From Balanoglossus misakiensis (Eukaryota; Animalia; Hemichordata), in assembly GCA_040954595.2 (NCBI GenBank), contig CM082591.2, positions 5,301,009 through 5,365,008 on the forward strand: DNA of 64,000 nucleotides, read 5' to 3'. The notes below the pieces were generated by a model. That model saw nothing but the letters and a program-made list of their open reading frames with translations. It had not been told where the DNA came from and made no database searches. The translations under genes and the position numbers were made by a program. Below are positions 1 through 55,900 of the stretch, piece after piece; position 1 is the stretch's first letter; each line of letters opens with the position of its first letter.

Positions 1-3000
1 TTTCATTTGAATATAGTAGATAAACCGCCCAACCATTAACAATGTGTAATTAAATTTTTTCGAATTTTCCACAAATCATAAAAAGGTTTCTTTAAAACGA
101 TAAGAAGTCATATCTTGAAGAAAACATATTTAAATAAAACATATGGTTTCATAATCCTATAAGCCTCATTAGCTGGAATCAATTGCTCACTATACCGATA
201 CTATAGTAGCCCACAACGGTCACATAGTCGACAAATGCATTCGAGACTCACAACCCAAAAGTATATGTACATACAATATATTGTGTTATTAAACCGAATA
301 TTGGACATTATATCGTCCTTTTGAAATTGAGTTAAACAAGACGCCGCAGTTGATAATAAAAAAATCATAATGAAAATAACAGAAACAACTTATGTACTTC
401 AAGATACAGGATTTGTAAAAACAACAATTTTTCATTAAATTCATAATTTCTCCCAAGTAACCGAGATTCTTGTAAATTTATGTAAGGATACTATTTTTTG
501 CGAAAAATTTAATAAATGATAATTCATACACAGTAATATTTATCTCCTAATTAGTATGTTTTTAAAAAAAAAACCTTTAAATATATTTGAATACAATTGA
601 AAATTTTACAATTTCTTTTCTCTGTTAATAGAGGATGCTATAGTTTTGTAAGTGTGAATGCTATCAGTTTGGCAGATGGCTCGATATTTTACACTGTTTA
701 TGCATGCGTACAAATGGCAGAGACCATCTGCATATTCTTACGTCTAGATCCTCTTGTAATTTTAGTAATTGAAATAAGTAGGTTCGCAACTGCATAAATT
801 ATCGCGAGAACCTGTGTAAGAGGAGCTATGTATATTGTATATAGCTGTCTACGATTTGAAATACTTGCAAACAGAAAAGCTATCTTAGCCCAATTTTACA
901 AAGTTAACATCGCCAAGCAATGTAAAGACTGCGCACTAAAGTATCATATCAGGTTGCTTTTAAACTTTCATAAGTGTTCGCATCTTGAGTTTCTGGAGAT
1001 AGAGACGCGTACACAGCTTCCGTCCCATCGGCCACTGCAGCGTTTACATTTACATGTCCGGATTGGGCTTGATCATAGCCAGTCGTCGCTTGTGAAACGG
1101 AGGGGTCAGATTGCAGGTCTCCTAAATCTATGTCGGGCCCATTCCCTGAGGCTTGTTTAGCAGCATCCTGATTATCATGTGGTTTTCTTCCCCGCTTATG
1201 GCGACAGTGTCTTATTCCAAACAATAATCCAACCAGCAAAGCAGCTGTGAGAATGCCGAGAAAGAATCCGATCACCACCCCTACAAAGCCGGTAACAGAC
1301 GGGACATCTGTGTTATCAAATGTAGTATGCGTTGCAACAACGGTTTTCTCAGAGTGTGTTCCTGTTGATGGTACGGTTGTTTCTGTGGATATGGTCGTTA
1401 TTGTTGGGACCACATTATTTCCCTTGACTGTTGAAGATAACGGGACAGTCTGGTCTACGTCACGGATGTTTAGTACCCTTACCCCCAACGATGTCCCTTC
1501 TGCGTTGGTGGCCACGCAGGAATACGAACCCGAGTCTGCCATTTCAACGGATGAGATCAGGAGGCTCCCGTTGTCAACCTGAACCAACTTTTCATGCGAA
1601 CACGCATTCTGCATTTGAGGGTATACAGCCTCCCCACCAGGGGTGAGCCAATATTTAAATGGGTCTGGTACACCTACTACGTCACAATCCAGAGTTACAT
1701 CGTCACCCACGTCGGTGATTATCACTTCGAATACTGTCACAGTGCTAAATACCGGAAGTGGACAACACGTCATGTTGTCCGGTGGTATTTGCAATAACTC
1801 ACGTCCTGCAAGATGATCTGGTGAATTACACACCGTTGGTAAATATCCCAAATTCAATCGATGACTGTTGTCATCCAGCCACAGTCTGAAATCTCGTAAA
1901 CGGCAGTCACACGACCAAGGATTATCGTTAATGTATAAATAACGTAATTTGTCAAGTCCATGGAAAATGTTGCCCGGTAAAGTTGTGATGTCGGTACTGT
2001 ACATATCCAGTCGCTGCAGGTGACCTAAGCCAGCGAATATTTTCGATGGCAAAGTCATAATTGGGTTTCTAAATAAGTAGAGGTAAACCAAATTCGTTAA
2101 CCCATTAAAAACGGTTTCGGGTAGTATAGTTAGTTGATTATCGTACACATACAACGTATTCAAATTTCCCAGGCCCCGAAATAAGTTTTTAGGCAATGCA
2201 TTAATTTGATTGCTGTGTAAATAAAGAGTGCGAAGATTTGTCAATCCATCAAATAAATTTTTAGGTACACACGTTAATTTATTACCAGACAAATAAATCG
2301 TTTCGATGTCTGTCAGTTCATGGAAAATTCTTTCTGGCAAATGGGTGATTTGATTACCATATATGTAAATGGTTCTTAGTTTGGATAGATCCTTGAAAGT
2401 GTTCTCTTGAAGTGTCTCGATACGGTTGGACCACAGTTGAAGATAAGTTAAACTGTTCAGACCAATGAATGCATCTTCGGCTATATAGTAAATTCTGTTT
2501 CTAAACAGCTCTAGCCGTATCAATTCTGAATAGCCGAGAAATGATCCACTTTCAATTCTAGTTATTTTGTTGTGATTGAGTGCAAGTATAGTTGTGTTGT
2601 ATGGTACATCTGAAGGGATTTCCGTCCAGCCTCGGTAATTACAATTGACATCCGTGCCCGAACAAGAGCAGTTTGTTGGACATCCTTGAGTTTGCCGAAG
2701 TAGTGATAAAGCACAGAAAATGAAACCCAGTCCACACAGATATGACATGTCGATGAGTGATGGAGTACTCTGTGGGCAGAATATAATATATATTCAGTTA
2801 TTTTCACATAATTTCTTTAGTTATGTACCGTTCTTAAGATGTCATGGTGGTATTTATTGCGGGTTGTGTGCATTGAAATTGTTGCTGATACACACGCATT
2901 CGATCTATGAATGAAATGATCTTGCACAACAACACACTTTGAAAATCAGTCGTTGTCTGCAAGATTTGAATGATTTTAATATTCTGGCAAATGTCACGGA

Positions 3001-5732: not shown

Positions 5733-7526
5733 TTATAAACTTTCATAACTGTTCGCATCCTGGGTTTCTGGAGATAGAGACGCGTACGTATCTTCCGTCC
5801 CATCGGCCACTGCAGCGTTAACATATACCTGTCCGGATTGGGCTTGATGGCCGCTCTTCAGTTGTGAATCGTGGACATAAGATTGTAGGTTTCCTAAATT
5901 TATGTCGGCCCCTGTTGGCGTTTCTGCCTTAGACGCTTGTGCAACAGTATCTCGGTTATCATGTGGTCTTCTTCCCCGCTTATGGCGACAGTGTCTTATT
6001 CCAAACAATAATCCGACCAGCAAAGCAGCTGTGAGAATGCCGAGAAAGAATCCGATCACCACCCCTACAAAGCCGGTAACAGATGGGACATCTGTGTTAT
6101 CAAATGTAGTATGCGTTGCAACAGCGGTTTTCGCAGGGTGTGTTCCTGTTGATGGTACGGTTGTTTCTGTGGATGTGGTCATTATTGTTGGGACCACATT
6201 ATTTCCCTTGACTGTTGAAGATAACGGAACAGTCTGGTCTACGTCACGGATGTTTAGTACCCTTACCCCCAACGACGTCCCTTCTGCGTTGGTGGCCACG
6301 CAGGAATACGAACCCGAGTCTGTCATTTCAACGGATGAGATCAGGAGGCTCCCGTTGTCAACCTGAACCAACTTTTCATGCGAACACGCGTTCTGCAGTT
6401 GAGGGTATACAGCCTCCCCACCTGGGGTGAGCCAATATTTAAATGGGTCTGGTACACCCACTACGTCACAATCCAAAGTTACATCGTCACCCAAGTCGGC
6501 GATTATCACTTGGAAGAATGTGTTGAATACCGGAAGTGGATAACACGTCATGTTGTCCGGTGGTATTTGCAATAACTCACGTCCTGCAAGATGATCTGGT
6601 GAATTACACAACATTGGTGAATATCCCAAATTCAATCGGTGACTGTTGTCATCCAGCCACATTCTGAAATCCCGTAAACGGCAGTCACACGACCAAGGAT
6701 TATTGTAAATGTATAAATAACGTAAGTTGTCAAGTCCATGGAAAATCTTTCCCGGTAAAGTTGTGATGTCGGTATTGTACATATGCAGTTGCTGCAGCTG
6801 ACCTAAGCCAGTGAATATTTTCGATGGCAACGTTTTAAGTGGGTTTAGATGTAAGGTGAGGGATAGCAACTCCGTTAACCCATTAAAAATGGTTTCTGGT
6901 AGTGCTGTAAGTTGATTATTGTATATGGACAACGTATTCAAATTTCCCAGGCCCCGAAATAAGTTTTTTGGCAATGCATTAATTTGATTTTCGTATAAAT
7001 AAAGAGCGCTAAGATTTGTCAATCCATCAAATAAATGTTCAGGTACACACGTTAATTTATTACCAGACAAATGAATCACTTCGATGTCTGTCAGTTCATG
7101 GAAAATTCTTTCTGGCATATGGGAGATTTGATTACTATTTATGTAAATGTATCTTAGTTTGGATAGATCCTTGAAAGTGTTCTCTTGAAGTGTCTCGATA
7201 CGGTTGGACCACAGTTGAAGATAAGTTAAACTGTTCAGACCAATGAATGCATCTTCGGCTATATAGTAAATTCTGTTTCTAAACAGCTCTAGCCATATCA
7301 ATTCCGAATAGCCGAGAAATGATCCACTTTCAATTCTAGTTATTTCGTTGCTCCAAAGTCTAAGTATAGTTGTGTTGTATGGTACATCTGAAGGGATTTC
7401 CGTCCAGCCTCGGTTACCACAATTGACGTCCGTGCCAGAACAAGAGCAGTTTGTTGGACATCCTTGAGTTTGCCGAAGTAGCGATAAAGCGCAGAAAATG
7501 AAACACAGTCCACACAGATATGCCAT
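5733..7526 (-). CDS. LRR-Ig-TM receptor, type A copy 2 (A2)
   Basis: 597 aa ORF with the same architecture as A1; tail contains YVN and YASL-x9-YESL. Confidence 0.95.
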   Translation of the reverse strand: MAYLCGLCFIFCALSLLRQTQGCPTNCSCSGTDVNCGNRGWTEIPSDVPYNTTILRLWSNEITRIESGSFLGYSELIWLELFRNRIYYIAEDAFIGLNSLTYLQLWSNRIETLQENTFKDLSKLRYIYINSNQISHMPERIFHELTDIEVIHLSGNKLTCVPEHLFDGLTNLSALYLYENQINALPKNLFRGLGNLNTLSIYNNQLTALPETIFNGLTELLSLTLHLNPLKTLPSKIFTGLGQLQQLHMYNTDITTLPGKIFHGLDNLRYLYIYNNPWSCDCRLRDFRMWLDDNSHRLNLGYSPMLCNSPDHLAGRELLQIPPDNMTCYPLPVFNTFFQVIIADLGDDVTLDCDVVGVPDPFKYWLTPGGEAVYPQLQNACSHEKLVQVDNGSLLISSVEMTDSGSYSCVATNAEGTSLGVRVLNIRDVDQTVPLSSTVKGNNVVPTIMTTSTETTVPSTGTHPAKTAVATHTTFDNTDVPSVTGFVGVVIGFFLGILTAALLVGLLFGIRHCRHKRGRRPHDNRDTVAQASKAETPTGADINLGNLQSYVHDSQLKSGHQAQSGQVYVNAAVADGTEDTYASLSPETQDANSYESL

Positions 7527-9476: not shown

Positions 9477-11693
9477 TCAGATTTCTTGCAAATCTATATC
9501 AAATCTCTGCTCAGCTGCTGGCTCGACTGTTCTTGGTTTTCTGTCCTCAGACGTAACATCGACTGTGTTGCCTTGGTTGTCAAAACTCACTGAAAAGCTA
9601 CCATGTTTTTCGTAAGTATTTTGAATCACTTTGCGGCGACAGTAGCGGACCGCAAATAGTATTCCCATCGCTGCCAGAGTCGCGAGAACTCCCAGAAAGA
9701 ATCCGAGCACGGCCCACACGAGATCAGAATTTCTCGTGTTTTCCATTGTTGTGCTGGAATGGTTCCCGCTGATGTGTGTGCTTTTGAAGGGTCTCTCGGT
9801 GTCTGCTCCCCCTTCTGTCGCGGATTCTGTAACTGCAGGTACATTACCCTCCGTTACATGCGGGACTTTTGTGCTACTGAATGACACGGTTGCCGTGGTG
9901 ATTGCCAGTGGCATGGTTGTTTTGGCCAACGTTTCCCCAGCCGTTCTAACCTCAGTTGTCGAGACTATAGATGACAGTGTTTGAGATCTACCTGAAGTTC
10001 TCAATAATGAACTACTCTGTTCTGTATAAGTTACTGTGGATGGTTTATGTGATGTTAACGGCGTTGTTCTTTCTATGTAACTTATCGTGGTTGGTAAATC
10101 AGGTGTTGATGTGAATGGAGTGGTATGTTCCATATGACTATTTGTTGATGTCATTGCTAATGTTGTTAACGGCGAAGTCTGTTCTGTGTAACCGAGATTT
10201 AGTATTCTTACACCCACAGACGTTCCCTGTGAGTTCGTCGCGACGCAAGAATACGAACCCAAATCTGACATCTGTACGTTTTGAATGAAGAGGCCCCCGC
10301 CATTTGTACGACCCGTGCTTTCATTCGGACACGTATCTTGCGATGGTAGGCGTACAACCAAACCTGGTGGAGTAATCCAGTATTTATCTGGATCGGGCTC
10401 GCCAACTACGTCACAATCCAAAGTCACGCTGTGCCCTATGTCTGTGGTTAGTGTTCTAACCGGCGTGACGAATACCGGAAGTGGATAGCAAGTAAGATTG
10501 TTCAGTGGTATTTGCAGCACATTCTCTCCCACGTGGGTGTCTGGGGAATCACAAGTCATAGCTGTAGAACCATAGTAAAGTCGGCCATCATTATCCATGA
10601 GCCACGCTTTAAGGTCTTTCAAACGACAGTCACATGACCAGGGATTGTCGTAGAGGTATAAGTAATCTAAGTCATCAAGACCATCGAACACAGTACTCGG
10701 TAGAGTTGTGAGGCTGTTATTTTGTAGGTACAATTTATCCAATTGGCCCAAACCTTGGAATATTTTCAGCGGTAACGTTGTTAATGCATTGAATTCCAAA
10801 TACAGCTGGCTCAACATATTCAACCGTTCGAAAATGTTCTCTGGCATTGACTTTAACGGGTTTCTGCTCAAAGTGAGAAACTGCAGCTCTACCAAGTCAT
10901 CGAATAGCCGTCCAGGCAACGTGGTGATCTTATTAGAGTTTAGATACAGTTTCTCCAGACTTGATAGTCCGCTGAACAGATCGGCTGCTAGGCACGCCAG
11001 TTTATTGCTGGCTAGGTGAAGAGTTTGAAGATGTGCGAGTCCGCGGAAGATACCCGCGGGTAAGTGTGTGATTTGGTTATTGTATGCGTAAATAGCACTT
11101 ATGTATCTCAGGTTAGTAAAGAGGTCCTCCCGGAGCGTCGTGAAGTTGTTGTTGTTTAGACCAAGAGTCTCAATTTCACCAAGGCTCTCGAATATTCCTT
11201 CCGGTAGGACACTCAGCTGAGTGAAACTGACGCTCAGGGATCGTATTTTGCCTAGGCCTTGGAAGATTTGTTGTGGCAAGGAACCCAGGCCATTTCTGTA
11301 CACGTTAAGGTGCAACAGCTCGTGCAGACCGTGGAATATAGTCTCCGGCAACGACGATAGCAAGTTCTCGTTGATGTGGAGAGACTGCAGACGATTAAGT
11401 CCAGCGAACGCATCTTCGCCCATGTAGGTGATGTCATTGTGGTCCAGATGCAATTCCAAAAGTTGAGGATATCCCAGAAAGGAGCCGTTCTCCACGCGAG
11501 TTAGGTGGTTGTAGTTCAGTTTCAGAATGGTCGTGTCAATCGATATGTTGGCTGGGATCTCTCTCAGTTGCCGGTAACTGCAATCGACGCGGGTTTGAAA
11601 GCATGAACAATTGGCTGGACACCCTTGGTTCATTGGCAATAGTGTCACAGTGGAAAATAGCAAATAAACGCCACATACAAATAGGTATGCCAT
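9477..11693 (-). CDS. LRR-Ig-TM receptor, type B copy 1 (B1)
   Basis: 738 aa ORF: signal peptide, LRRNT, 12 LRRs plus LRRCT, Ig domain, long Ser/Thr mucin-like stalk, TM (LVWAVLGFFLGVLATLAAMGILFAV), short tail with no YxxL pair. Confidence 0.95.
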   Translation of the reverse strand: MAYLFVCGVYLLFSTVTLLPMNQGCPANCSCFQTRVDCSYRQLREIPANISIDTTILKLNYNHLTRVENGSFLGYPQLLELHLDHNDITYMGEDAFAGLNRLQSLHINENLLSSLPETIFHGLHELLHLNVYRNGLGSLPQQIFQGLGKIRSLSVSFTQLSVLPEGIFESLGEIETLGLNNNNFTTLREDLFTNLRYISAIYAYNNQITHLPAGIFRGLAHLQTLHLASNKLACLAADLFSGLSSLEKLYLNSNKITTLPGRLFDDLVELQFLTLSRNPLKSMPENIFERLNMLSQLYLEFNALTTLPLKIFQGLGQLDKLYLQNNSLTTLPSTVFDGLDDLDYLYLYDNPWSCDCRLKDLKAWLMDNDGRLYYGSTAMTCDSPDTHVGENVLQIPLNNLTCYPLPVFVTPVRTLTTDIGHSVTLDCDVVGEPDPDKYWITPPGLVVRLPSQDTCPNESTGRTNGGGLFIQNVQMSDLGSYSCVATNSQGTSVGVRILNLGYTEQTSPLTTLAMTSTNSHMEHTTPFTSTPDLPTTISYIERTTPLTSHKPSTVTYTEQSSSLLRTSGRSQTLSSIVSTTEVRTAGETLAKTTMPLAITTATVSFSSTKVPHVTEGNVPAVTESATEGGADTERPFKSTHISGNHSSTTMENTRNSDLVWAVLGFFLGVLATLAAMGILFAVRYCRRKVIQNTYEKHGSFSVSFDNQGNTVDVTSEDRKPRTVEPAAEQRFDIDLQEI

Positions 11694-15262: not shown

Positions 15263-17182
15263 TTATAAACTTTCATAAGTGTTCGCATCCTGGGTTTCTG
15301 GAGATAGAGACGCGTACGCAGCTTCCGTCCCATCGGGCATTGCAGCGTTTACATATACGTGTCCGGATTGGGCTTGATGGCCGCTCTTCAGCTGTGAACC
15401 GTGGACATAAGATTGTAGGTTTCCTAAATTTATGTCGGCCCCTGTTGGCGTTTCTTCCTTAGACGCTTGTGCAACAGTATCTCGGTTATCATGTGGTCTT
15501 CTTCCCCGCTTATGGCGACAGTGTCTAATTCCAAACAATAATCCAACCAGCAAAGCAGCTGTGAGAATGCCGAGAAAGAATCCGATCACTGCCCCTACAA
15601 AAAGTGGATTGGCGATCTTCATGTCAGCAGCAGTTTCAGCCGTTTCCTCGGTGACAGACGGGACATCTGTGTTATCAAATGTAGTATGCGTTTCAACAGC
15701 GGTTTTCGCAGGGTGGGTTCCTGTTGATGGTGCGGTTGTTTCTTCGGATGTAGACATTATTGTTGTGTCAGCCTGTCCTGTCGTTGGGATTCCATTGTTG
15801 GTCGGCTCTGTCGTTGGAATCACATCGTTGACCTCCTTTGTTGTTGGGGCCGCACTGTTTCCCATGACTGTCGAAGTTAACGGAACAGTCTGGTCTACGT
15901 CACGGATGTTTAGTACCCTTACCCCCAACGACGTCCCTTCTGCGTTGGTGGCCACGCAGGAATACGAACCCGAGTCTGTCATTTCAACGGATGAGATCAG
16001 GAGGCTCCCGTTGTCAACTTGAACCAACTTTTCATGCGAACACGCGTTCTGCAGTTGAGGGTATACAGCCTCCCCACCAGGGGTGAGCCAATATTTAAAT
16101 GGGTCTGGTTCACCAACTACGTCACAATCCAATGTTACATTGTCACCCACGTCCGTGATTATCACTTCGAATTCTGTGCTGAATACCGGAAGTGGATAAC
16201 ACGTCATGTTGTCCGGTGGTATTTGCAATAACTCACGTCCTGCAAGATGATCTGGTGAATTACACATCATTGGTGGAGATCCCAAATTCAATCGGTGACT
16301 GTTGTCATCCAGCCACATTCTGAAATCCCGTAAACGGCAGTCACACGACCAAGGATTATTGTAAATGTATAAATAACCTGAGTTGTCAAGTCCATGGAAA
16401 ATCTTTCCCGGCAAAGTTGTTATGTCGTTATTGTACATATGCAGCCACTTCAGCTGACCTAAGCCAGTGAATATTTTCGATGGCAAGGTTTTCATTGGGT
16501 TTTGACCTAAGTTGAGGTATGTCAACGTCGTTAACCCATTAAAAACGGTTTCGGGTAGTATAGTTAGTTGATTATCGTACATATACAACGTATGCAAATT
16601 TCCCAGGCCCCGAAATAAGTTTTTAGGCAATGCATTAATTTGATTGCTGTGTAAGTAAAGAGCGCGAAGATTTGTCAATCCATCAAATACATTTTCAGGA
16701 ACACACGTCAATCTATTATGAGCCAAATGAATCCTGTCGATGTCTGTCAGTTCATGGAAAATTCTTTCTGGCAAATGGGAGATTTGATTATTATGTATGT
16801 GAATGTCTCTTAGTTTGGATAGATCCTTGAAAGTGTTCTCTTGAAGTGTCTCGATACGGTTGGACGCCAGGTGAAGAAAAGTTAAACTGTTCAGACCAAT
16901 AAATGCATCTTCAGCTATATAGTAAATTCTATTGCCATGCAGGTCTAGGTGTAGCAATTCTGAATAGTTGATAAAGGATTCGCTTTCAATTCTAGTTATG
17001 TCGTTGTTGTAGAGTAAAAGTTTGGCTGTGTTGTATGGTACATCTGAAGGGATTTCCGTCCAGCCTCGGTTACCACAATTGACGTTCGTGCCAGTACAAT
17101 AGCAGCTTGTTGGACATCCTTGAGTTTGCCGAAGTAGCGATAAAGCACAGAAAATGAAACCCAGTCCACACAGATATGCCAT
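15263..17182 (-). CDS. LRR-Ig-TM receptor, type A copy 3 (A3), long-stalk variant
   Basis: 639 aa ORF with type A architecture; about 42 extra residues in the stalk; tail YVN and YASL-x9-YESL. Confidence 0.95.
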   Translation of the reverse strand: MAYLCGLGFIFCALSLLRQTQGCPTSCYCTGTNVNCGNRGWTEIPSDVPYNTAKLLLYNNDITRIESESFINYSELLHLDLHGNRIYYIAEDAFIGLNSLTFLHLASNRIETLQENTFKDLSKLRDIHIHNNQISHLPERIFHELTDIDRIHLAHNRLTCVPENVFDGLTNLRALYLHSNQINALPKNLFRGLGNLHTLYMYDNQLTILPETVFNGLTTLTYLNLGQNPMKTLPSKIFTGLGQLKWLHMYNNDITTLPGKIFHGLDNSGYLYIYNNPWSCDCRLRDFRMWLDDNSHRLNLGSPPMMCNSPDHLAGRELLQIPPDNMTCYPLPVFSTEFEVIITDVGDNVTLDCDVVGEPDPFKYWLTPGGEAVYPQLQNACSHEKLVQVDNGSLLISSVEMTDSGSYSCVATNAEGTSLGVRVLNIRDVDQTVPLTSTVMGNSAAPTTKEVNDVIPTTEPTNNGIPTTGQADTTIMSTSEETTAPSTGTHPAKTAVETHTTFDNTDVPSVTEETAETAADMKIANPLFVGAVIGFFLGILTAALLVGLLFGIRHCRHKRGRRPHDNRDTVAQASKEETPTGADINLGNLQSYVHGSQLKSGHQAQSGHVYVNAAMPDGTEAAYASLSPETQDANTYESL

Positions 17183-19130: not shown

Positions 19131-21347
19131 TCAGATTTCTTGCAAATCTATATCAAATCTCTGCTCAGCTGCTGGCTCGACTGTTCTTGGTTTTCTGTCC
19201 TCAGACGTAACGTCGACTGTATTACCTTGGTTGTCAAAACTCACTGAAAAGCTACCATGTTTTTCGTAAGTATTTTGAATCACTTTGCGGCGACAGTAGC
19301 GGACCGCAAATAGTATTCCCATCGCTGCCACAGTCGTGAGAACTCCCAGAAAGAATCCGAGCACGGCCCACACAAGATCAGAATTTCTCGTGTTTTCCAA
19401 TGTTGTGCTGGAATTGTTCCCGCTGATGTGTGTGCTTTTGAAGGGTCTCACGGTGTCTGCTCCCCCTTCTGTCGCGGATTCTGTAACTGCAGGTACATTA
19501 CCCTCCGTTACATGCGGGACTTTTGTGCTACTGAATGACACGGTTGCCGTGGTGATTGCCAGTGGTATGGTTGTTTTGGCCAACGTTTCTCCAGCCGTTC
19601 TAACCTCAGTTGTCGAGACTATAGATGACAGTGTTTGAGATCTACCTGAAGTTCTCAATAATGAACTACTCTGTTCTGTATAAGTTACTGTGGATGGTTT
19701 ATGTGATGTTAACGGCGTTGTTCTTTCTATGTAACTTATCGTGGTTGGTAAATCAGGTATTGATGTGAATGGAGTGGTATGTTCCATATGACTATTTGTT
19801 GATGTCATTGCTAATGTTGTTAACGGCGAAGTCTGTTCTGTGTAACCGAGATTTAGTATTCTTACTCCCGCAGAAGTTCCCTGTGAGTTCGTCGCTACGC
19901 AAGAATACGAACCCAAATCTGACATCTGTACGTTTTGAATGAAGAGACCCCCGCCATTTGTACGACCCGTGCTTTCATTCGAACACGTATCTTGCGGCTG
20001 TAGGCGTACAACCAAACCTGGTGGAGTAATCCAGTATTTATCTGGATCGGGCTCGCCAACTACGTCACAATCCAAAGTCACGCTGTGCCCTATGTCTGTG
20101 GTTAGTGTTCTAACCGGCGTGACGAATACCGGAAGTGGATAGCAAGTAAGATTGTTCAGTGGTATTTGTAGCACATTCGCTCCCGCATGGGTTTCTGGGG
20201 AATCGCACGTCATAGCTGTAGAACCATAGTAAAGTCGGCCATCATTATCCATGAGCCACGCTTTAAGGTCTTTCAAACGACAGTCACATGACCAGGGATT
20301 GTCGTAGAGGTATAAGTAATCTAAGTCATCAAGACCATCGAACACAGTACTCGGTAGAGTTGTGAAGCTGTTATTTTGTAGGTACAGTTTATCCAATTGA
20401 CCCAAACCTTGGAATATTTTCAGCGGTAACGTTGTTAATGCATTGAATTCCAAATACAGCTGGCTCAACATATTCAACCGTTCGAAAATGTTCTCTGGCA
20501 TTGACTTTAACGGGTTTCTGCTCAAAGTGAGAAACTGCAGCTCTACCAAGTCATCGAATAGACGTCCAGGCAACGTGGTGATCTTATTAGAGTTTAGATA
20601 CAGTTTCTCCAGACTTGATAGTCCGCTGAACAGATCTGCTGCTAGGCACGCCAGTTTATTGCTGGCTAGGTGAAGAGTTTGAAGATGTGTGAGTCCGCGG
20701 AAGATACCCGCGGGTAAGTGTGTGATTTGGTTATTGTATGCGTAAATAGTACTTATGTATCTCAGGTTAGTAAAGCGGTCCTCCCGGAGCGTCGTGAAGT
20801 TGTTGTTGTTTAGATAAAGAGTCTCAATTTCAACAAGGCTCTCGAATATTCCTTCCGGTAGGACACTCAGCTGAGTGAAACTGACGCTCAGGGATCGTAT
20901 TTTGCCTAGGCCTTGGAAGATTTGTTGTGGCAAGGAACCCAGGCCATTTCTGTACACGTTAAGGTGCAACAGCTCGTGCAGACCGTGGAATATAGTCTCC
21001 GGCAACGACGACAGCAAGTTCTCGTTGATGTGGAGAGACTGCAGACGATAAAGTCCAGCGAACGCATCTTCGCCCATGTAGGTGATGTCATTGTGGTCCA
21101 GATGCAATTCCAAAAGTTGAGAATATCCCAGAAAGGAGCCGTTCTCCACGCGAGTTAGGTGGTTGTAGTTCAGTTTCAGAATGGTCGTGTCAATCGATAT
21201 GTTGGCTGGGATCTCTCTCAGTTGCCGGTAACTGCAATCGACGCGGGTTTGAAAGCATGAACAATTGGCTGGACACCCTTGGATCATTGGCAATAGTGTC
21301 ACAGTGGAAAAAAGCAAATAAACGCCACATACAGATAGGTATGCCAT
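19131..21347 (-). CDS. LRR-Ig-TM receptor, type B copy 2 (B2)
   Basis: 738 aa ORF; roughly 23 aa differences from B1 by manual comparison. Confidence 0.95.
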   Translation of the reverse strand: MAYLSVCGVYLLFSTVTLLPMIQGCPANCSCFQTRVDCSYRQLREIPANISIDTTILKLNYNHLTRVENGSFLGYSQLLELHLDHNDITYMGEDAFAGLYRLQSLHINENLLSSLPETIFHGLHELLHLNVYRNGLGSLPQQIFQGLGKIRSLSVSFTQLSVLPEGIFESLVEIETLYLNNNNFTTLREDRFTNLRYISTIYAYNNQITHLPAGIFRGLTHLQTLHLASNKLACLAADLFSGLSSLEKLYLNSNKITTLPGRLFDDLVELQFLTLSRNPLKSMPENIFERLNMLSQLYLEFNALTTLPLKIFQGLGQLDKLYLQNNSFTTLPSTVFDGLDDLDYLYLYDNPWSCDCRLKDLKAWLMDNDGRLYYGSTAMTCDSPETHAGANVLQIPLNNLTCYPLPVFVTPVRTLTTDIGHSVTLDCDVVGEPDPDKYWITPPGLVVRLQPQDTCSNESTGRTNGGGLFIQNVQMSDLGSYSCVATNSQGTSAGVRILNLGYTEQTSPLTTLAMTSTNSHMEHTTPFTSIPDLPTTISYIERTTPLTSHKPSTVTYTEQSSSLLRTSGRSQTLSSIVSTTEVRTAGETLAKTTIPLAITTATVSFSSTKVPHVTEGNVPAVTESATEGGADTVRPFKSTHISGNNSSTTLENTRNSDLVWAVLGFFLGVLTTVAAMGILFAVRYCRRKVIQNTYEKHGSFSVSFDNQGNTVDVTSEDRKPRTVEPAAEQRFDIDLQEI

Positions 21348-26500: not shown

Positions 26501-29500
26501 TTGATTGATAGATATCGGATATGCAGGCTGCTATCGGTACAATGAAGTTGAACCAGGATGGAATTCAACAGACATGTTCACCAATTCAAGAATGACGATA
26601 CAGTTGTGTCTTGCGTATTGTCGATCACGTGATATGGACTATGCAGGATTGAAGAACAAAGTAGAATGTTACTGTGGGCAAACGAGCCACGCCGGTTGGC
26701 CGGCACAAAACAGCAAGTGTGGTGGTAAATGTCAAGGAGACAACAGACAAGCATGTGGAGGAGGGCAATTCGTATCCATATACCCAAGTAAGCGACAAAC
26801 TTCAGTTGGTAAAATCAATTGGGAAGCGGGAACATGTTCATTTATTACATTTTGCGCTCTTCCAAAATGTTGAATTAATTATTTGTTAAGCAAAGGGGTT
26901 AATTTTGATGAAAACGAAAGTTTGTATGTCTGTACTTTTAAAACGTATGTTGGTTTGTCTGTACTTACCAATAATGCCTTAAACATAACCGAGTTCTTAG
27001 TAGAACCAACCAACAAATAATTCACAAATGTAAATCTCCACCTCCCAAAACAACAAACAAACAAACCTGAAACACATAGAGAGTACGAGTTTACTGCTGT
27101 TCAATGTTATAATCTAAACATGAATAGCATAGCAATGTTGAATGATCATAGCAATTTCGCTCGAGAATTTGTGACATCTTCCGTTGTCAGGCTCGTGTCC
27201 AAAAAGCAGGATTAGTAATGTTACTCTGGCAAACTAATTCTGTTATTCCAGCAACAATTGGAGCGTGTGGGGGCACTGTCGATGGATCGGGAGTCATATA
27301 TTCCCCTGGCTTCCCAGGAGGTTACTCAGAAAACCAGACGTGCACGTGGAGAATAGCATTACCCCGAGAAAACACCACCAGGCTGAACAGAATATTCTGG
27401 ACTATGTCGACCATAACCGGACGCAATGACTCACTCAGGGTTACCGAAGAGATGGATGGCATCACTTACGAGATCGGCTCCTTTGGTCCTGAATCGAACC
27501 TACCGAGAGACTTACATTCTTGCTCCAACGAAGTTGTGTTCACATTTTCTTCCGGAAGCATACATGCTTCCAGCGATGGAATGTTTGCTTTCCAAATAGA
27601 AGGTATTGTAACCTAAAATTCTGGAGGTTCAGATTCTCTAATGGTTGTTGGAACTTGGTCGTCAATTATAACCCTGACAATATGATTGCATTCAGTCTGT
27701 TTTATATTTGTCATAGAATTGTTGTTGCTACTTCAACGTCCCCCAAATTGTTGTTGCTACTTCAACGTCCCCCAAAATGGTTATATGGTACAGCAATAGT
27801 AATTAGTGAATGTGCGAACTTCAATTATACAAGAGGTTCGGTAAATAACAACCTTATCAAAATATGCTCTTTTCAGGAGTGACCAAGGGTTGTCAACTTC
27901 CACGGTCCATCCCAAATGGTAATTTCCATATTATGGGTAACTGTCCACAAGACTATTCCCTGAATGTTAGTTGTAACGAGGGTTTTACAACAACGGAGTC
28001 GGGACCAGTCGTTAGCTGTGGCGATGACCAACAGTGGCGTGGTAATATTCCAGTTTGTATTGGTAAGCACCGATTTGAATTTTTTTCCATGAAAAAAAAA
28101 CAATGGGAAATTAGCGGAACTGATGGGTATGATGGTGGTGATGGCAATTAGATAAAAGGTATAAAGCGGTTAATTTCCATTGGCATTAATAAATTACCTT
28201 ACTTGCAATCACTGTACACAGAAATTACTTGTGGAAATCCTGGAAACGTATCTGACGCAAACCAGGAAGGGGACACATATACTTACCAAAACACAGTAAA
28301 ATATTCATGCCACGATGGGTACTACATTGTCGGGAATGACACCATTGCTTGCATGAGAGATGGAACATGGACTGAAAAACCCACCTGTATTTTGGCAGGT
28401 ATGTAAACAAAATGTGCCTTGATTTAGCAGTCAATCTGCCTGAGTTGTGTTTGATTTTCCCTTCTTCATCTCATATTTCTATGTCTAATTAATTTTTATC
28501 GTGTCATTGTTATTGAATAAATAATGTATGATATAATGTTATACACAGATCCTGTAGCTAACCAAGTTTTTGGTACTCCTGCGGGTGAGTGTGACATTGA
28601 TTTATTCTAAATGTGTATATATGCAGTGACATAAACATAAGATCTTTCTACTATATTGTAATGGCAGTATTCGAATTTGACTCTGGTCTTTCACGGATTC
28701 CCATTTTAGTGAGGTTTCACACTCAAATTATTCTCGTGAGAAACACGCGAGAAACATTCATAACCTTTTTAAAGCAAGTTGGATTAAACCAAGAGCCATA
28801 TTGCAGTTAGTGCAGCACTATTTTATCAGGAATGGGATATACGATCAATTACATGTTTTGTTTCCCCAGGTCCTATTACAGGCGCACTTATTGGAGTATT
28901 TGTCCTGATATCTTTGTGCATAGTAGCATTCCTCTTGTACAGAAGGCAAGTTTCTCAATTTGTATCTTTTTTCCAATTGGTGAATATGTATTTGATCTTG
29001 CGTCATCATTGACGACTGTGTTCCTTGGGTATCGGTTTTTAGTCGTCATCTTATGGGTAGTAAGGTTTGTGTGAAACTTTGAAGAATTGAAGATTTATTA
29101 ATTGACTTGTACATACAGGACAACTTAATAGACCACCAAATGAAACTAAAATAACCAAAATAATGTCTGTCAGAAGCTAGCGATGTTGTCCCTTTCAAAG
29201 AAATTCAGACCTTCGATTTAATTGTTCCACAGGAAGTGCCATCAAAAACCAACCAGACGCGATACACTGTCGCTGATAAGGACAAGCAAAGAAACAGAGA
29301 TCTCCAACACAACGTGTCTTGATAACCCAACTAATGACTACGCAAACAGTAAAGATACGGTACTTGAGATAGATGACGTACAATGCTTTGATGAAGAACT
29401 GTCAAAGAAAGCCGATGTGGACGATGATGTGGAGTTTGGACAACTTGGAGGAGGAAATGTTAAGAAAACCTTGGCTGACAGCAGTGTAGATGTTATGTCA

Positions 29501-31819
29501 GAAAGAAGGCCAGGCAAGGAAACTAAACAACATGGTATCCCTCCTCCACAAGCAATGGCCGACAAGACAAAGTTTAAAGAACAACACCATGATATAACAT
29601 ATGAAGAGGCTGAAATTGGTCAACAAGTTCAACTTGATGGAACAACGGAAGCATCTCAATATGATAGGTCAAGCAGAAACGGTTCGGCCAGAAGCAACTC
29701 TTCGAAAACGTCTTTCAAAAAAGCTAGCAGAAGCTTGTTTTTGAAGGTCAAGGGTGTATTCGTCGGCAGACATGAGCGCATCGAAGGAGACGTGAGCAAT
29801 CTCACGAAGGGCAAAGATGAAATCGAGAGTACCCAGAATGAGGATGAGGATGTGTATTCAGAAATAAACGACAAAGAAGGATCTCCTGATGGGAAGACTG
29901 CATATGAGCAGCACGTAGATGAAAGTCCCAGGGATAACCTGAAATTCATAAAAAAGATTGGACATCTTGTGTTGCCAACGGAGGAACGTGCTAAGCTATC
30001 AAATGGTGCCATTCAAGAGCCATCTGTCGATCAGAAAACAGAGAAAGAGACTGCAGGTGCGGCTACAGGGAACGTTAGCGTAGAGATGGAACAAGCCAAC
30101 AGGGACTGTCAAATTGAAATGACAGAAAATATATTGTACGATTTTGGTACTGATCCAATAATTGACGAGGAAAACGTTTACGCAAGTGTTGCAGATGACG
30201 AATTTGCTTCCGTAGACAATGTTCTGTACGAATCTAGTGAACAGGACGCATCTGTGGAGAAGGGTCGTGCTGTTACAGACACCATTGGCGAACCCTGTCA
30301 GAATGCATCGCCATGTTCATCACAGGACAAAGAAATCACACCAAATTCTGGACACACTGGCAGCTTTGTGAAGAAGCGTGAACACCACAGAAACACACAG
30401 GAGGGCAACACATCATATGCATCAGCTGATTATGGTGGAAAAGAGGTAGAACAGGAAGAAACACGTCGAGGAACAGATGACAACGACGCTGACAATGTCT
30501 ATTCAGAGATAGACACCAATGGCAACGAGGGGTTTGTGGACAACATCCTTTATGATGTCAAACCGCACGTGCCAAATCAGTCTGCAGGAAGCAAAGTTAA
30601 TGATCGCAAACAGATCGAGGGGAAAGTCACCGGAAACCCAACGTCTTGTTCTAGTGACCCAACGGGTGACGGTGTTGTTACTGACAGGCGAAGAGACAGA
30701 CCAATGCATGATCACGACACGTTTTTAAGAAAGTGTGATAGTGAGAATGGGGGGAGTAAACAGCCTGATTCAGGTACATTTGAAATGGTCGACAATGTGT
30801 TATACGAATCAGTTGACCAAGATCTCACTGACAATACACACCAACCCAGAGGTATTGATACTAATGTGGCGGAAGGTATGGGGCGTAAGAATACAGATGA
30901 TGCAGAAGAAGTCGTGTATGAGCTGGCAACAAGCAACCCACTGGCTAATAGGAGAGAAACAGAACAGAGTGAAACCCAAGGGCAAATGCAAAGCCCCGGC
31001 CAGCAGTGCACTAGTTTGACAGAAGGTATGGAGTGTAAGAAGACAGATGGTGCAGACTTAGTTGAGTATGAGCTGGCAACAAGCATCCCAGTGGCGAATA
31101 GGGCGGAAACTGAACAGAGTACATCCCAAGGGCAACTGCTAAGCCCTAGTCTGAAATTCCTGGAAATTGAACCCAACCCTGGTAGCAAAATTGTGCCTGT
31201 TTACCCAGAAATTACCACTACTGAAGTGGCGGCAACCAGTGGCGTGGAAGAAGCCGGCGACGAGGGGATGGTTGACAATATCCTCTACGATTCAATGGAA
31301 AACATGGTAAAAGATGTCTATGATGATGGCATGACTCTTGGCAATAGTGATCCTTTGACAGAAGGGGACACAGGACAATCAAACAACATGCACGACAATA
31401 GTCACGACGGAGACGGTGTCTTCAGGAATGAAAACAGAGAGCAAATTGCCAAACAATCTGGCGTTGATGATAAGAGAAGAGATATGTCCTTACCTGCAGC
31501 AGACATGGTTGACAATGTTATCTATGAGTCAATAGACAACGACCTAGACGATGGCGTTCAGGATGATTCGCCTAATACTAAACCGGTTTCCATGAACGTT
31601 ACTCACAGACACGACCCCTCGAAGGAAACTACTGCAGACCAAGCCAAAGGCAAAATGGGTTACCTGGCAAAGTTTGGACAGAAGGTGATGCCGGATGAAC
31701 TTTCTCCTAGGTCCATTACGTCTCCCAAAGAGCTAGACGAACCGTCTAATGTCGATGGAGCCAGAGTTAGTAACAGGGAAGGTCATTTTGGATACGGACC
31801 GGAAGTAACTGACGTGTAG
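23535..31819 (+). CDS. SRCR-WSC-CUB-2xCCP-TM receptor 1 with ~860 aa tyrosine-motif-rich tail (spliced, 10 exons)
   Basis: Exons: signal 23535-23613 (MATLCAGGILTGFFALFLCVCVHG); SRCR 25317-25457 (RLVDG..EGRVEV..W.PVC..VCNQLG) and 26024-26194; WSC 26512-26787; CUB 27252-27602; CCP 27877-28062 and 28222-28398; linker 28549-28584; TM 28870-28945 (GC donor); tail 29233-31819. Phases are consistent. Confidence 0.85.
25488..25841. mobile_element. Non-autonomous DNA transposon (Kolobok-like MITE) in an intron
   Basis: TTAA flanks; imperfect terminal inverted repeats ttaaagggtcattagctgtaacttttgac... / ...ccaaaagatacagctaatggatctttaa. Confidence 0.7.
27717..27775. repeat. 29 bp tandem duplication in an intron
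   Basis: aattgttgttgctacttcaacgtccccca present twice. Confidence 0.85.
30871..31147 (+). repeat. 150 bp-period coding repeat in the receptor 1 tail
   Basis: EGMGRKNTDDAEEVVYELATSNPLANRRETEQS versus EGMECKKTDGADLVEYELATSIPVANRAETEQS. Confidence 0.85.
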
Positions 31820-39431: not shown

Positions 39432-42246
39432 TTGGCGCCACTGTTGGACACTGTCGACACCCTCTCCGTTTTTGAAAGCGTTCTTGCCCGTCGGCGGGAA
39501 ATCGTGGTACTGAACGCAACGACAAAGTCCTGTTCAAATCAGGTGCATTTTCTCCTAGAGAAGACAAGCAACGCCGGTGGTAACGGTGGCATCTTTGCAC
39601 TAGAATTCAAGGGTAAGGATAACAATTTTGTGACATACACATGCAAATTCTACAATTTGCTACGTATTGCTTCATTATACGCTCCATCCGTTGCAGAGGC
39701 TGACCCTGACTGCCCCAATCCGATAGCCGTGGAAGGTTCAGGCGACGAGCGAATGTACGAGGTCGTTGAATTTTGCCCCTTGCATGGACACAATGTATCA
39801 ATAAAGTGCAAAGTTGGCTACAATTTGACTTCCGCACACGACACAATAACCTGCTTGGAAAATGGAACGTGGAGTGATTCATTCCCAGAGTGTACCCGTA
39901 AGTTATCATTATATGCGTACATATACGCGTATTGTCATTCTCAGTTGACAAGAAATAAACCGATGTATAAATTGCTGTCAGTCTCCAATTGTAAAATCAA
40001 AATAAACAGGAGTTATTGTGTTGTAAGTTTCACAAAGACATGTGTTGACACAGGAGAAAAGATTGGGTTGTGTGTCGTGTTGTTTTAGGTAATGCATTCT
40101 TATCACTAAAATATTCATAGCAGTCTAGACGACAGGTGGCTTTTCAGTTTCGCCTTGAATGGGAAATGCAGACGCATTGTCTCCTTTTGACTGCGTTCAC
40201 ACAACATTCGATGGTCAGCACATTCCTTCTGCGTAGCTCCATCCGTTCTCATTGCAACAGTGTATCGTTGCAAACCACTGATAACGTTGGCTTTGTTTAA
40301 CGTCTGTCACGCAGTAGTTAATTGTGGTGACCCAGGTGAAGTCAGTAACGCCACGAGAGAAGGGACATCGTTCGTATATCAAAGCATAGTGGAGTATACC
40401 TGTTATGATGGATTCCATGGCGGCGGTCAAATAACGTGCACTCTGCAGGGAATATGGACAGATCGTCCCAGCTGCCATCCATTCGGTAAGGCGAATGTGA
40501 AGACCATACCAGGGATGGTTCGTACAAGGTCAAAGTTTAGTAGACCATGTACACATGTGAATTGTGAACTGACATACTCAATTATTGCTATAATAGAAAA
40601 ATCACACATTTCCTATACTCGTGAAATGAGCTTTAATGAAGGTGCTCCATAAGTCAGTATGTGTACTTTTATGACTGCCAAACTTTTAAATTACTTGAAT
40701 CATTTATTATCAATGTAATTCTCCAATTTGGTCAAAATAATTGCAGGTTGTTCTGGTACGATGCCTCCATTTACAAATCAATCAAATAACGTTTTATTCC
40801 CCAGTCAACCATTTTAAATACAATAAAATGATCATTTTCATTTTAATAATATGCAGATACAACCCCAGGCACAGAACAGCCAAACTCCCAAGCGGGTGCT
40901 GGTGAGTAGTTAAACACGAAACTGTCATATACATGAAGGGAAGTATGGGGTCATTTTATTTATGGCCACATAATCGTTCGAACATGTTCAACACCAGATG
41001 TCGTTTTTAATCCGAGGAAATTTAAATGATCTGTTCGAGGCCTACTATCTCGACGCTAAGCAAGATCTCTCATTTCAGGTCTTGTTGCTGGAGTTGTAGT
41101 TGGGATGCTAGTGTGTATTGGAATCACAGCAGCTTCTGTCATAATTTACATCCGGAAAAGGTTGGCAAATCTCAGATGTCTCTTCATGTTATCTGAAAAT
41201 AATGTCTTAAAGGGAAACAAACTCGAAAAAAGTACTTCAACATAATACAAAATGTACATATTACACAACATTTACATTGAAGACTACCCATATTTATGTC
41301 ATTGAACCTAGCACAAATACATATGTGTCAGTTATTATACATATGTGGAACACTTATTTAAATGGACTGTTTCCTGTTTCCAGTTTTTAAATTCGGCCCC
41401 TTGCCAATAGCTTATAGTGCCTCTGCTTAAATTTCCAGAAGGTCAAAATCCACGAAGGGATTTGTCAGTACCCCATTCGCCAATCAGCAATACGACGACA
41501 CCACTCAAGAAAACAATCAAAACCAGAGGGCAGATGATGTGACAAAAAGTGGGGAAGTCCACTCTTATGAAATGATAGATCCGGTTAGAGAGGATTATTC
41601 AAAGTTACACAGTGACAAGCATACAACTCAAGCGGAGTATAGCGAAGTGGATACGGGAGAAATAGTTCGCATCAGCCATCGTCCTGACATCATCAAGGAA
41701 GCCGATAGAAGTCCAAAGAATTGTGACTATGCGTATGCCAATTCTGGTGTTGGTGACCAGGCTTCTGGGCATGATGACGTGAGCAAGGGAGGTGGGAAAA
41801 TCCAACAATTGGAGACCGGACACGCTATCTCGCCTTCTGCATACGACTCGACAAATAGCGTGTTAGTGAACAACATTTCGTATGAGTCCGTTGACGATTT
41901 CACTTCTGGGTTTGTAGAAAATGCCATTTACGAGGGTAGCTCTGACGTGGAGCAAGACCGACGCAGTGAAAACCTAAAAAGAGTTGAAGATCCAAGATTG
42001 AGCTGTCAAAGTGAGACTTGTCGTGGAACCGACGGAATAAGGATATCGGAAGACACCAATATGGTGGACAACGTGGCCTACGAGTCGGCTGACGTTGGCG
42101 AAGGTGACGGTGACGTGTACGCTGAAATCGATGACGCATACGGCGATAATGTCGACGCAGAGGGAAGTGTTGACAATATACTCTACGGGTCGGGAAGTGC
42201 TGGAAACCCCGATGATGTGGTGTATTTTGTTTTAGAGGAACCATGA
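39432..42246 (+). CDS. 5'-truncated (CUB)-2xCCP-TM receptor 2 with ITAM/ITIM-bearing tail (possible pseudogene or alternative 3' module)
   Basis: C-terminal half of CUB ~39432-39612 (..SCSNQVHF..IFALEFKG); CCP ~39698-39897 and ~40315-40485; linker 40858-40901; TM 41079-41160 (LVAGVVVGMLVCIGITAASVIIYIRKR); tail 41439-42246 in frame. No signal/SRCR/WSC exons found upstream. Confidence 0.75.
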
Positions 42247-52988: not shown

Positions 52989-55900
52989 ATGAACCATCAA
53001 CGCCTCATACTTATATCTCTAATTACAGCATTGCTTTGCAGTGTCATTTATTCAGGTAAGACTCTGTGACTTATATTTGGAAAGGGTTTTCACATACATG
53101 TATGGACGGGTTGTATTAATCAAAACACACCATGATTCTATTGTGAAAATATCGCATTGGGCGTGTATTACTTGCACAGCACATAACTGCAGGACATCAA
53201 TTAACTTCTGATTCTTATTTCCTTTGTATATTCCAATCTCTCTGTGTGTTTTGTATGCCTGTCTGTCTGTCTATCTGTCTTTACAAGACACTGCAAGGGT
53301 CAGACTCGCTAATGGGCCATTGCCCTATCAGGGCGAGGTAGAGGTGTACAAGGCAAGCAGTCGCCAATGGGTGCCAGTATTGTACCCAGGTGTTGGGAAC
53401 TACTCAAAATGGAGCTTCACCAACTCAGAAGTAGTTTGCGAGGAATTGGGTAGGGAGAATTGCAACATTAATCCATTTCGCTTTATTGCAACAATGCTGT
53501 GTTCAAACTTCATTGAACACAAACGACTTGTTCAATTTCACGCCCCATACTCATTATGCAGGTAATAGTCCATACGTTGTAATAATGACGACAACAATTT
53601 TATGTTTATGTTAGAAATTAACTGTTATCTCTTACTGTTAAATATGTTGACCTTCTTTTACTTGACATTTGATATCCATTGCACAATCAACACCTACAGG
53701 ACACCAAGGAGCTATGTGGAAAGGATCAAAACAAATCTCATGTTTCGGTGAGACCTGCCTCTTCAATGTTGCTTGCAATGGCAACGAGGAATCCCTTCTT
53801 CAATGTTCATATCACACTGGTACTTGTCCGAGAGAAACAGCTGTCGCTGTCGTAAGATGTAACTGTAAGTCTTTTCACGACCATCATATTAAAATATGTG
53901 TATGTATGTATGTATGTATGTATGTATGTATGTATGTATGTATGTATGTATGTATGTATGTATGTATGTATGTATGTATGTATGTATGTATGTATGTATG
54001 TATGTATGTATGTATGTATGTATGTATGTATGTATGTATGTATGTATGTATGTATGTATGTATGTATGTATGTATGTATGTATGTATGTATGTATGTATG
54101 TATGTATGTATGTATGTATGTATGTATGTATGTATGTATGTATGTATGTATGTATGTATGTATGTATGTATGTATGTATGTATGTATGTATGTATGTATG
54201 TATGTATGTATGTATGTATGTATGTATGTATGTATGTATGTATGTATGTATGTATGTATGTATGTATGTATGTATGTATGTATGTATGTATGTATGTATG
54301 TATGTATGTATGTATGTATGTATGTATGTATGTATGTATGTATGTATGTATGTATGTATGTATGTATGTATGTATGTATGTATGTATGTATGTATGTATG
54401 TATGTATGTATGTATGTATGTATGTATGTATGTATGTATGTATGTATGTATGTATGTATGTATGTATGTATGTATGTATGTATGTATGTATGTATGTATG
54501 TATGTATGTATGTATGTATGTATGTATGTATGTATGTATGTATGTATGTATGTATGTATGTATGTATGTATGTATGTATGTATGTATGTATGTATGTATG
54601 TATGTATGTATGTATGTATGTATGTATGTATGTATGTATGTATGTATGTATGTATGTATGTATGTATGTATGTATGTATGTATGTATGTATGTATGTATG
54701 TATGTATGTATGTATGTATGTATGTATGTATGTATGTATGTATGTATGTATGTATGTATGTATGTATGTATGTATGTATGTATGTATGTATGTATGTATG
54801 TATGTATGTATGTATGTATGTATGTATGTATGTATGTATGTATGTATGTATGTATGTATGTATGTATGTATGTATGTATGTATGTATGTATGTATGTATG
54901 TATGTATGTATGTATGTATGTATGTATGTATGTATGTATGTATGTATGTATGTATGTATGTATGTATGTATGTATGTATGTATGTATGTATGTATGTATG
55001 TATGTATGTATGTATGTATGTATGTATGTATGTATGTATGTATGTATGTATGTATGTATGTATGTATGTATGTATGTATGTATGTATGTATGTATGTATG
55101 TATGTATGTATGTATGTATGTATGTATGTATGTATGTATGTATGTATGTATGTATGTATGTATGTATGTATGTATGTATGTATGTATGTATGTATGTATG
55201 TATGTATGTATGTATGTATGTATGTATGTATGTATGTATGTATGTATGTATGTATGTATGTATGTATGTATGTATGTATGTATGTATGTATGTATGTATG
55301 TATGTATGTATGTATGTATGTATGTATGTATGTATGTATGTATGTATGTATGTATGTATGTATGTATGTATGTATGTATGTATGTATGTATGTATGTATG
55401 TATGTATGTATGTATGTATGTATGTATGTATGTATGTATGTATGTATGTATGTATGTATGTATGTATGTATGTATGTATGTATGTATGTATGTATGTATG
55501 TATGTATGTATGTATGTATGTATGTATGTATGTATGTATGTATGTATGTATGTATGTATGTATGTATGTATGTATGTATGTATGTATGTATGTATGTATG
55601 TATGTATGTATGTATGTATGTATGTATGTATGTATGTATGTATGTATGTATGTATGTATGTATGTACCTCACGTTTTCAGACAGTTGCACAATGGCTGAA
55701 ACCATTTATATACCAATTTTCTTTTCTTTCCAAAATATAGTCGATGACTATCAAGGATGTTTCCAATTTGGCGAAAGCGGGGAAGGCCCCCTTCACATCC
55801 GGGAAAACATGACAATCCAAATGTGTCTTGAACATTGTCGCAATACGTCCATCTTAAATTCCACGTACGCTGGTTTACTTGGAGGTAACATGTGTCACTG

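Follow-up and report, generated by a model that had tools for sequence, protein, structure and literature searches.

Can an animal receptor whose leucine-rich repeats (LRRs) vary from copy to copy signal through a tyrosine motif in its own tail? This question is raised by a 64-kb stretch of Balanoglossus misakiensis DNA (hereafter the window, meaning the whole stretch analyzed), in which three receptor genes (A1, A2, and A3), all intact single-exon ORFs, alternate with a related pair of genes, B1 and B2 (Table 1). A first-pass annotation had described ITAM-like C-termini on the A receptors and had read these proteins as variable LRR sensors wired directly to tyrosine kinase activation.

According to Pfam and transmembrane (TM) analysis, all five window proteins have LRR units framed by an LRRNT and an LRRCT-type cap, followed by a single Ig domain, a stalk, and a single TM segment, which is the arrangement defining LIG proteins (LRRNT-LRR-LRRCT, then Ig and a single TM). 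In A1, the domain order is signal peptide, LRRNT, 10 LRR units, LRRCT, one Ig, Thr/Ser-rich stalk, TM, and tail. Pfam scans detected no TIR domain in the window proteins, whose tails are 58 to 90 residues long, and none of the five has an exact-sequence match in the protein collection searched. The gene copies are 90-95% identical over kilobases, flanks included, and A1-A3 are recent copies. An AlphaFold2 model of A2 (13-sequence alignment; mean pLDDT 70.7, pTM 0.57) has folded LRR and Ig parts, and its best fold matches, extending across the whole ectodomain, are LINGO-1 (2id5), NGL2 (3zyi), and NGL-3 (3zyo). Residues 513-597 of the model show pLDDT values below 50 and no secondary structure, and the A2 tail is likely disordered. 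Elsewhere in the window, a glycosyltransferase family 2-like single-exon frame (59872-61017, plus strand) is followed by a 356-base inverted self-match (61149-61504, 85% identity), possibly a small transposon, and a perfect short-period tandem repeat of about 1.77 kb with self-matches at 8-base offsets lies at 53899-55666.

Table 1. Receptor genes of the window and features of their tails and repeats, in window positions.
Feature	Position	Strand	Remarks
Receptor A1	949..2748	-	599 aa, one coding exon, about 90-aa tail
A1 ITAM-like pair	961..1020	-	E-x-x-YASL-x9-YESL (Y580, Y593), read 1020-961
A1 lost first module tyrosine	1042..1050	-	NVN for YVN, single T>A change
A1 diverged mid-tail	1072..1185	-	limits approximate; 71-72% nucleotide identity to A2/A3
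A1 TM core	1222..1278	-	no charged residue; GxxxG-type glycine spacing
A1 LRR array	1879..2598	-	concave face varies among A1-A3
Receptor A2	5733..7526	-	597 aa, architecture as A1
A2 three-tyrosine module	5736..5825	-	YVN (Y568; 5825-5817), YASL (Y581), YESL (Y594), pair at 5795-5736; very C-terminus
Receptor B1	9477..11693	-	738 aa; 13 LRR units, then Ig, a long stalk, TM, and a tail of 58 aa
Receptor A3	15263..17182	-	639 aa, longer stalk, architecture type A
A3 three-tyrosine module	15266..15355	-	Y610, Y623, Y636; YVN at 15355-15347, pair at 15325-15266
Receptor B2	19131..21347	-	738 aa, near-copy of B1

The C-terminal motif peptides quoted in the first-pass annotation were all recovered on the minus strand of A1, A2, and A3. 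Each reads E-x-x-YASL-x9-YESL, with a spacer of 9 and a Glu at -3, and lies about 70 residues behind the single TM segment, at a cytoplasmic and accessible site. The annotation was also right that YVN occurs in A2 and A3 and is absent from A1, which has NVN at this position. Narrowly defined, the ITAM spacer comprises 6-8 residues. A further ITAM feature is an acid at -3 relative to the first tyrosine; it is found in 3/3 window A tails. Huene et al. give the consensus Yxx[I/L]x6-9Yxx[L/I] (10.1101/2022.03.04.482883), and Maqsood et al. describe two YxxL 6-12 amino acids apart (PMC9731471). All three A tails match with spacers of 6-9 or 6-12 and none (0/3) with 6-8, so that the earlier definition, YxxL/I-x6-8(12)-YxxL/I, holds in its wider form and fails in its narrow one. 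The bare pattern is cheap, with 54 matches across the six frames of the window; in 100,000 composition-matched shuffles of the A tails it appeared in 0.11-0.29%, and together with an acid at -3 in 0.012-0.037%. None of the three tails matches the broad ITIM ([ILVS]xYxx[ILV]), the ITSM (TxYxx[IV]), or YxxM, and the A tails contain no NPxY site. The Pfam ITAM family was unlisted for the A tails at E-values up to 10, and equally unlisted for the amphioxus protein P0234, which has two strict x8 motifs. A PDB search with the end of the A1 tail returned seven chance matches and no ITAM chain, and one with a six-sequence motif profile returned none. A PDZ-binding role of the terminal ESL was considered and dropped, because A1 and every homologue retaining the last tyrosine run beyond ESL. 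At the level of sequence, then, the motif is an ITAM in A1-A3.

The first-pass annotation had stressed that the motif is kept in a tail that, in A1, has otherwise diverged. This is true of the sequence, but it provides no evidence of selection: the 20 motif codons show 90-95% nucleotide identity among A1-A3, compared with 95-97% for 600 bases of non-coding 3' flank. As A1-A3 are recent copies whose motif is no better kept than that flank, conservation within the window is uninformative. The diverged mid-tail of A1 is itself flanked by near-identical sequence, and its silent and replacement divergence are alike (pS 0.29-0.33, pN 0.28), which fits an older sequence tract. This suggests that it may have been acquired by gene conversion, with a less closely related paralogue beyond the window as donor. 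The A1 stop codon was also lost by a single base change, and the protein ends three residues later.

A better test of conservation is provided by homologues. A search with A2 residues 268-597 (tail included) returned 2 proteins, from Ptychodera flava and Saccoglossus kowalevskii, among 6964 candidates; from an index-free search with the same residues, 8 of the best 150 matches were examined as family candidates, the rest consisting mainly of very large multi-Ig proteins; and a profile confined to LRRCT-Ig gave 96 matches. When only the TM and tail of A2 served as the query, a word-based search found nothing among 998 candidates and missed known relatives too, so it is uninformative on absence. 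The resulting set consists of 10 hemichordate proteins (nine from P. flava, one from Glandiceps talaboti) with 11 tails, P0095 being a fused model with two; their gene models may have incorrect termini. Counts over these tails are neither independent nor unbiased, because a single clade accounts for five of the P. flava proteins and the tail was part of two of the four search queries. With that clade counted as one, about five independent motif-bearing lineages remain.

The first tyrosine is kept in 8/11 homologous tails as Y-x-x-Phi-x-P (Pro at +5), and all eight have Asp or Glu at -3 and Tyr at -13, the latter as YxN in 6/11 tails. A distal tyrosine follows at a spacer of 9-11 in 7/11, thereby staying within the range suited to tandem SH2 domains, and 6/11 carry L, I, V, or M at both +3 positions, that is, two YxxPhi half-sites 9-11 apart. 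The strict L/I pattern is confined to 2/11 tails, namely P0162 (YxxI-x9-YxxL, found by the ectodomain-only search) and the second tail of P0095 (spacer 10). Three of the 11 tails end in YxxV, and the Glandiceps homologue P0064 reads YTPM-x11-YEEM in the same register. P0164 is without the last tyrosine, the P0069 tail is truncated, the middle tyrosine of P0125 is displaced, and P0154 is without the module. The check proposed in the first-pass annotation, conservation of both tyrosines and their spacing across homologues, gives a mixed picture: both tyrosines are kept in 7/11 tails, both YxxPhi sites in 6/11, and the strict L/I consensus in 2/11. The final 37-43 residues of A1-A3 can be aligned gap-free to the P. 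flava P0006 tail at a score reached by 0/5000 shuffles; the membrane-proximal tail aligns poorly between the A receptors and the homologues. The narrow ITIM pattern matches 0/11 homologous tails; the broad one matches 6/11, in P0006 and P0037 at both sites, all via Ser at -2 and none via I, L, or V. Two Saccoglossus LRR-Ig proteins show no such tyrosine pair. Judged from these alignments, the conserved unit is a three-tyrosine module of which YxN is the ancestral first part and not an add-on: since the homologues keep a Tyr at -13 in register, YVN would be ancestral, and A1 would have lost it by one base change.

Among 31 tails of other transmembrane proteins (a redundant background set), the strict pattern occurs in one, that of P0234 from Branchiostoma belcheri. 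This hypothetical LRRCT-Ig-TM protein has two strict x8 ITAMs and one ITIM match and is a candidate ligand of amphioxus SYK. Its motifs are only weakly like the A motif (scores equalled in 6 and 26 of 1000 shuffles), and the resemblance of the tails may be convergent. A Branchiostoma hybrid protein, P0239, combines an LRR-Ig-TM arrangement with a precomputed PF00619 domain in its tail, which we take to be a CARD, and thus carries another signaling module on the same ectodomain type.

The closest relatives of the window receptors are all enteropneust, with 32-57% identity in LRRCT-Ig. In an LRRCT-Ig tree, window A, window B, the nine P. flava proteins, and the Glandiceps protein group together at 93/93, in a tree with few outgroups and long branches; in a second tree, the hemichordate grouping node is unresolved against an amphioxus protein. 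The recent clade of five P. flava proteins is supported at 100/100, and the B receptors are placed among motif-bearing lineages with moderate support (80/86), a position that suggests motif loss in B. P. flava XP_070557318.1, XP_070557317.1, XP_070571266.1, and XP_070557209.1, among others, share the architecture and three-tyrosine register of window A, as G. talaboti XP_077979274.1 shares its architecture and module register. These relatives differ from window A in their variable +3 residues (L, I, V, M), and they bear automatic names only (LRRC15-like, LRRC4C-like, chondroadherin-like, slit-like).

The description of the A-type LRRs as variable was borne out, the variation being concentrated on the concave face: 41/50 face positions differ among A1-A3 versus 23/190 in the remainder of the LRRs (Fisher p = 4e-21). 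Face positions have a pN of 0.29-0.39 and a pS of 0.09-0.23 (p = 0.055, 0.19, and 0.048 for the three pairs, thus below 0.05 in only 1/3), compared with a pN of 0.04-0.05 and a pS of 0.08-0.13 off the face. The LRRCT loop ahead of the second cysteine pair (residues ~300-306) varies among A1-A3 as well; agnathan VLRs have a variable LRRCT loop at a like position. The face variation supports diversifying ligand specificity in the putative signaling (A) class, and we infer that the A face would bind diverse, likely foreign, ligands. Between B1 and B2, 2/65 concave-face positions and 6/247 others differ, and their tails contain two tyrosines and no YxxPhi motif. The B genes alternate with the A genes, and GxxxG-type glycine spacing in the TM is common to both. 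Pairing of A with B, or a decoy role of B, is possible.

A second group of tyrosine motifs is found nearby, in two large tyrosine-rich exons (29222-31819 and 41431-42246, both plus strand) that lie among CUB and Sushi exons and have no Pfam domain. They contain six and four copies of N-x-x-Y-[ED], respectively (shuffle means 0.26 and 0.16; reached by 0/2000 shuffles), and the second also has a strict YxxI-x6-YxxL at 41566-41607 (39/2000 shuffles). Both exons are likely to encode the tails of a second tyrosine-motif receptor class beside the LRR-Ig cluster.

What would such a tail do? In our preferred reading, ligand binding would cluster the A receptors, a Src-family kinase would then phosphorylate the tail tyrosines, and a tandem-SH2 kinase (Syk or Shark) would be recruited to the YxxL-x9-YxxL pair and Grb2 to the YxN upstream of it, with activation such as phagocytosis or gene induction as output; A1 would lack the Grb2 branch, and B1 and B2 would be unable to signal on their own. 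We give even chances to this reading, in which A1-A3 would be recognition receptors that diversify and carry in their own tails an activating dock for Syk/Shark and Grb2; tyrosine phosphorylation, the SH2 partners, and the activating output are predicted features. Since the acorn worm relatives keep the tyrosine pair, target binding is predicted likely to switch on kinase signaling, and with 2/11 strict L/I tails, three YxxV, and one double YxxM, Syk or Shark is the likeliest reader, though others could serve. Precedents exist: Draper is a single-chain invertebrate receptor whose signaling uses Src42a and Shark (PMC8092387), an ITAM receptor of amphioxus is bound and phosphorylated by SYK (PMC13344425), and Syk is reported to be co-distributed with Bcl10/CARD-CC in invertebrates, hemichordates being placed with a Bcl10-dependent paracaspase (PMC5978004). 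Counting against the activating reading are the incomplete or absent module in P0164, P0069, P0125, P0154, and B1/B2, the spacer of 9, and the Ser-based ITIM matches of the homologues; in addition, BbLcLRR, the only experimentally studied case considered here of tyrosine motifs on an invertebrate LRR receptor, is inhibitory.

Two rival readings keep phosphotyrosine signaling and change its reader. The tail could be a costimulatory-type multi-site dock, with YxN binding Grb2 and the YxxPhi pair binding PI3K p85 or other SH2 proteins, without a Syk-family kinase. With Ser-Pro behind it, YxxM looks like a PI3K site of the IRS type, and p85 prefers Met at +3, yet YxxM is found in 1/11 homologues and 0/3 window proteins. 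That one homologue, P0064, has the motif twice and in register, and paired YxxM is bound by the tandem SH2 domains of PI3K (PMC9731471). The fixed YxN of 6/11 homologues suits this dock, as does the sole Pfam family touching the tail, the SIT transmembrane adaptor, but the SIT match (17.3 bits, also 14.3 bits, against a cut-off of 27.6) is below significance; we regard the PI3K/Grb2 dock as unlikely, if worth serious thought. Alternatively, an ITIM-like tail could recruit SHP/SHIP phosphatases or Csk, making A1-A3 inhibitory self-recognition or feedback receptors like BbLcLRR. The [ILVS]xYxx[ILV] matches of the homologues, doubled in P0006 and P0037, favor such a role; moreover, the inhibitory sites of BbLcLRR, DDYATV for instance, can bind SHIP1 with no hydrophobic residue at -2 (PMC8211107), and amphioxus SYK can itself inhibit NF-kB (PMC13344425). 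However, the -2 residue is Ala, Asp, or Asn in A1-A3, none of which shows an ITIM or ITSM match, and every homologue match rests on Ser. The fixed acid at -3 and the Tyr-Tyr distance of 13-15 residues suit ITAM geometry better. Two-site SHP2 binding geometry fits that distance less well, and an inhibitory tail appears doubtful to us.

The remaining alternatives dispense with phosphotyrosine signaling or with function altogether. Each half-site is also a valid YxxPhi sorting signal for AP-2/AP-3, which would make the receptors endocytic or lysosome-targeted capture receptors; AP mu subunits tolerate the L, I, V, or M seen across the homologues, and the last YxxPhi lies 0-6 residues from the C-terminus in 9/10 tails with both tyrosines. 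Sorting leaves unexplained, however, the 13-residue spacing to YxN (which is no YxxPhi), the invariant acid at -3, and the narrow 9-11 spacer, and we consider it quite improbable. Finally, the motif could be a neutral relic of recent tandem duplication without present function in A1-A3, considering that its conservation among the window copies does not exceed that of the non-coding flank, that A1 lost one tyrosine and its stop codon, and that several homologues lost the module. This is very improbable: the exact register persists in proteins only 32-57% identical in LRRCT-Ig with a poorly aligned membrane-proximal tail, and the A1-A3 reading frames are all intact.

Toll-like receptors signal through TIR, and Trk kinases join LRR-Ig to tyrosine signaling through a fused kinase. 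The germline gene of agnathan VLRs is incomplete and assembled from flanking cassettes, and its product has no Ig domain or signaling tail. The window receptors are like VLRs in their 24-residue LRR units and in the variation of the concave face and LRRCT loop, and VLR structures are among their sequence matches; they differ in being germline-complete single exons with Ig, TM, and tail, and no cassette assembly was seen within the 64-kb window, whose five frames are complete. Vertebrate LIG proteins (NGL/LRRC4, LINGO1, AMIGO1, SALM) are similar in architecture, the NGLs aligning by sequence over the whole LRR-Ig ectodomain, but they are neural adhesion proteins with ~23-30% identity, and the LINGO and LRIT2 tails are without the tyrosine pair.

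The first-pass annotation had called LRR sensing with tyrosine signaling an unusual combination. This needs to be narrowed, as the amphioxus receptor BbLcLRR is, like window A, an invertebrate deuterostome LRR transmembrane receptor with tail tyrosines, which are phosphorylated by a Src-family kinase (PMC8211107); in contrast to window A, it has WSC and no Ig, its ITIM-like tyrosines are 35-116 residues apart, and no ITAM-spaced pair is described for it. Hydractinia Alr (10.1101/2022.03.04.482883) and Botryllus FcoR (PMC12582321) are likewise clustered variable receptors with ITAM, hemITAM, or ITIM tails, their signaling being inferred from the motif and the presence of Syk/Shark, whereas their ectodomains are Ig/Fn3 without LRRs and they are tied to allorecognition loci. 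Draper/MEGF10 (PMC8092387), a single chain whose own ITAM is read by Src and then Shark/Syk, and oyster Ig receptor-Syk signaling (as cited in PMC13344425) resemble the model proposed for window A; they differ from it in having an EGF/Nimrod or Ig ectodomain, an NPxY site, and a single conserved gene in place of a diversifying cluster. Neither this LRR-Ig family nor any LRR-Ig receptor with its own ITAM was described in the literature searched, whose coverage excluded most subscription journals. ITAM-like tails being common in invertebrate receptor clusters, and already known there, the interest rests on the LRR combination and on motif switching. An amphioxus immune-repertoire paper reportedly describes an LRR-Ig expansion and may bear on this novelty.

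Hemichordate immune receptors have barely been studied, and a variable LRR face with its own tyrosine tail would, if true, be a third LRR wiring beside TIR (TLRs) and anchored or secreted VLRs. The natural variants of the tail (YxxL, YxxV, YxxM, YxN loss, last-tyrosine loss) bear on the interconversion of ITAM, ITIM, and PI3K motifs, and the family bears on the age of ITAM-Syk signaling from variable receptors. A broader proposal, which we advance as speculative and rather unlikely, is that acorn worms, and possibly the deuterostome ancestor, might have LRR sensors of a VLR-like kind that are diversified in the germline and feed straight into ITAM-Syk and Grb2, their tails shifting between Syk-type (YxxL), PI3K-type (YxxM), and silent forms and their B partners being invariant and lacking a tail motif; the extension to the ancestor is made because of the amphioxus LRRCT-Ig protein with two canonical ITAMs. 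If true, one pre-vertebrate receptor would join the LRR-based and the ITAM-based branches of vertebrate immune recognition.
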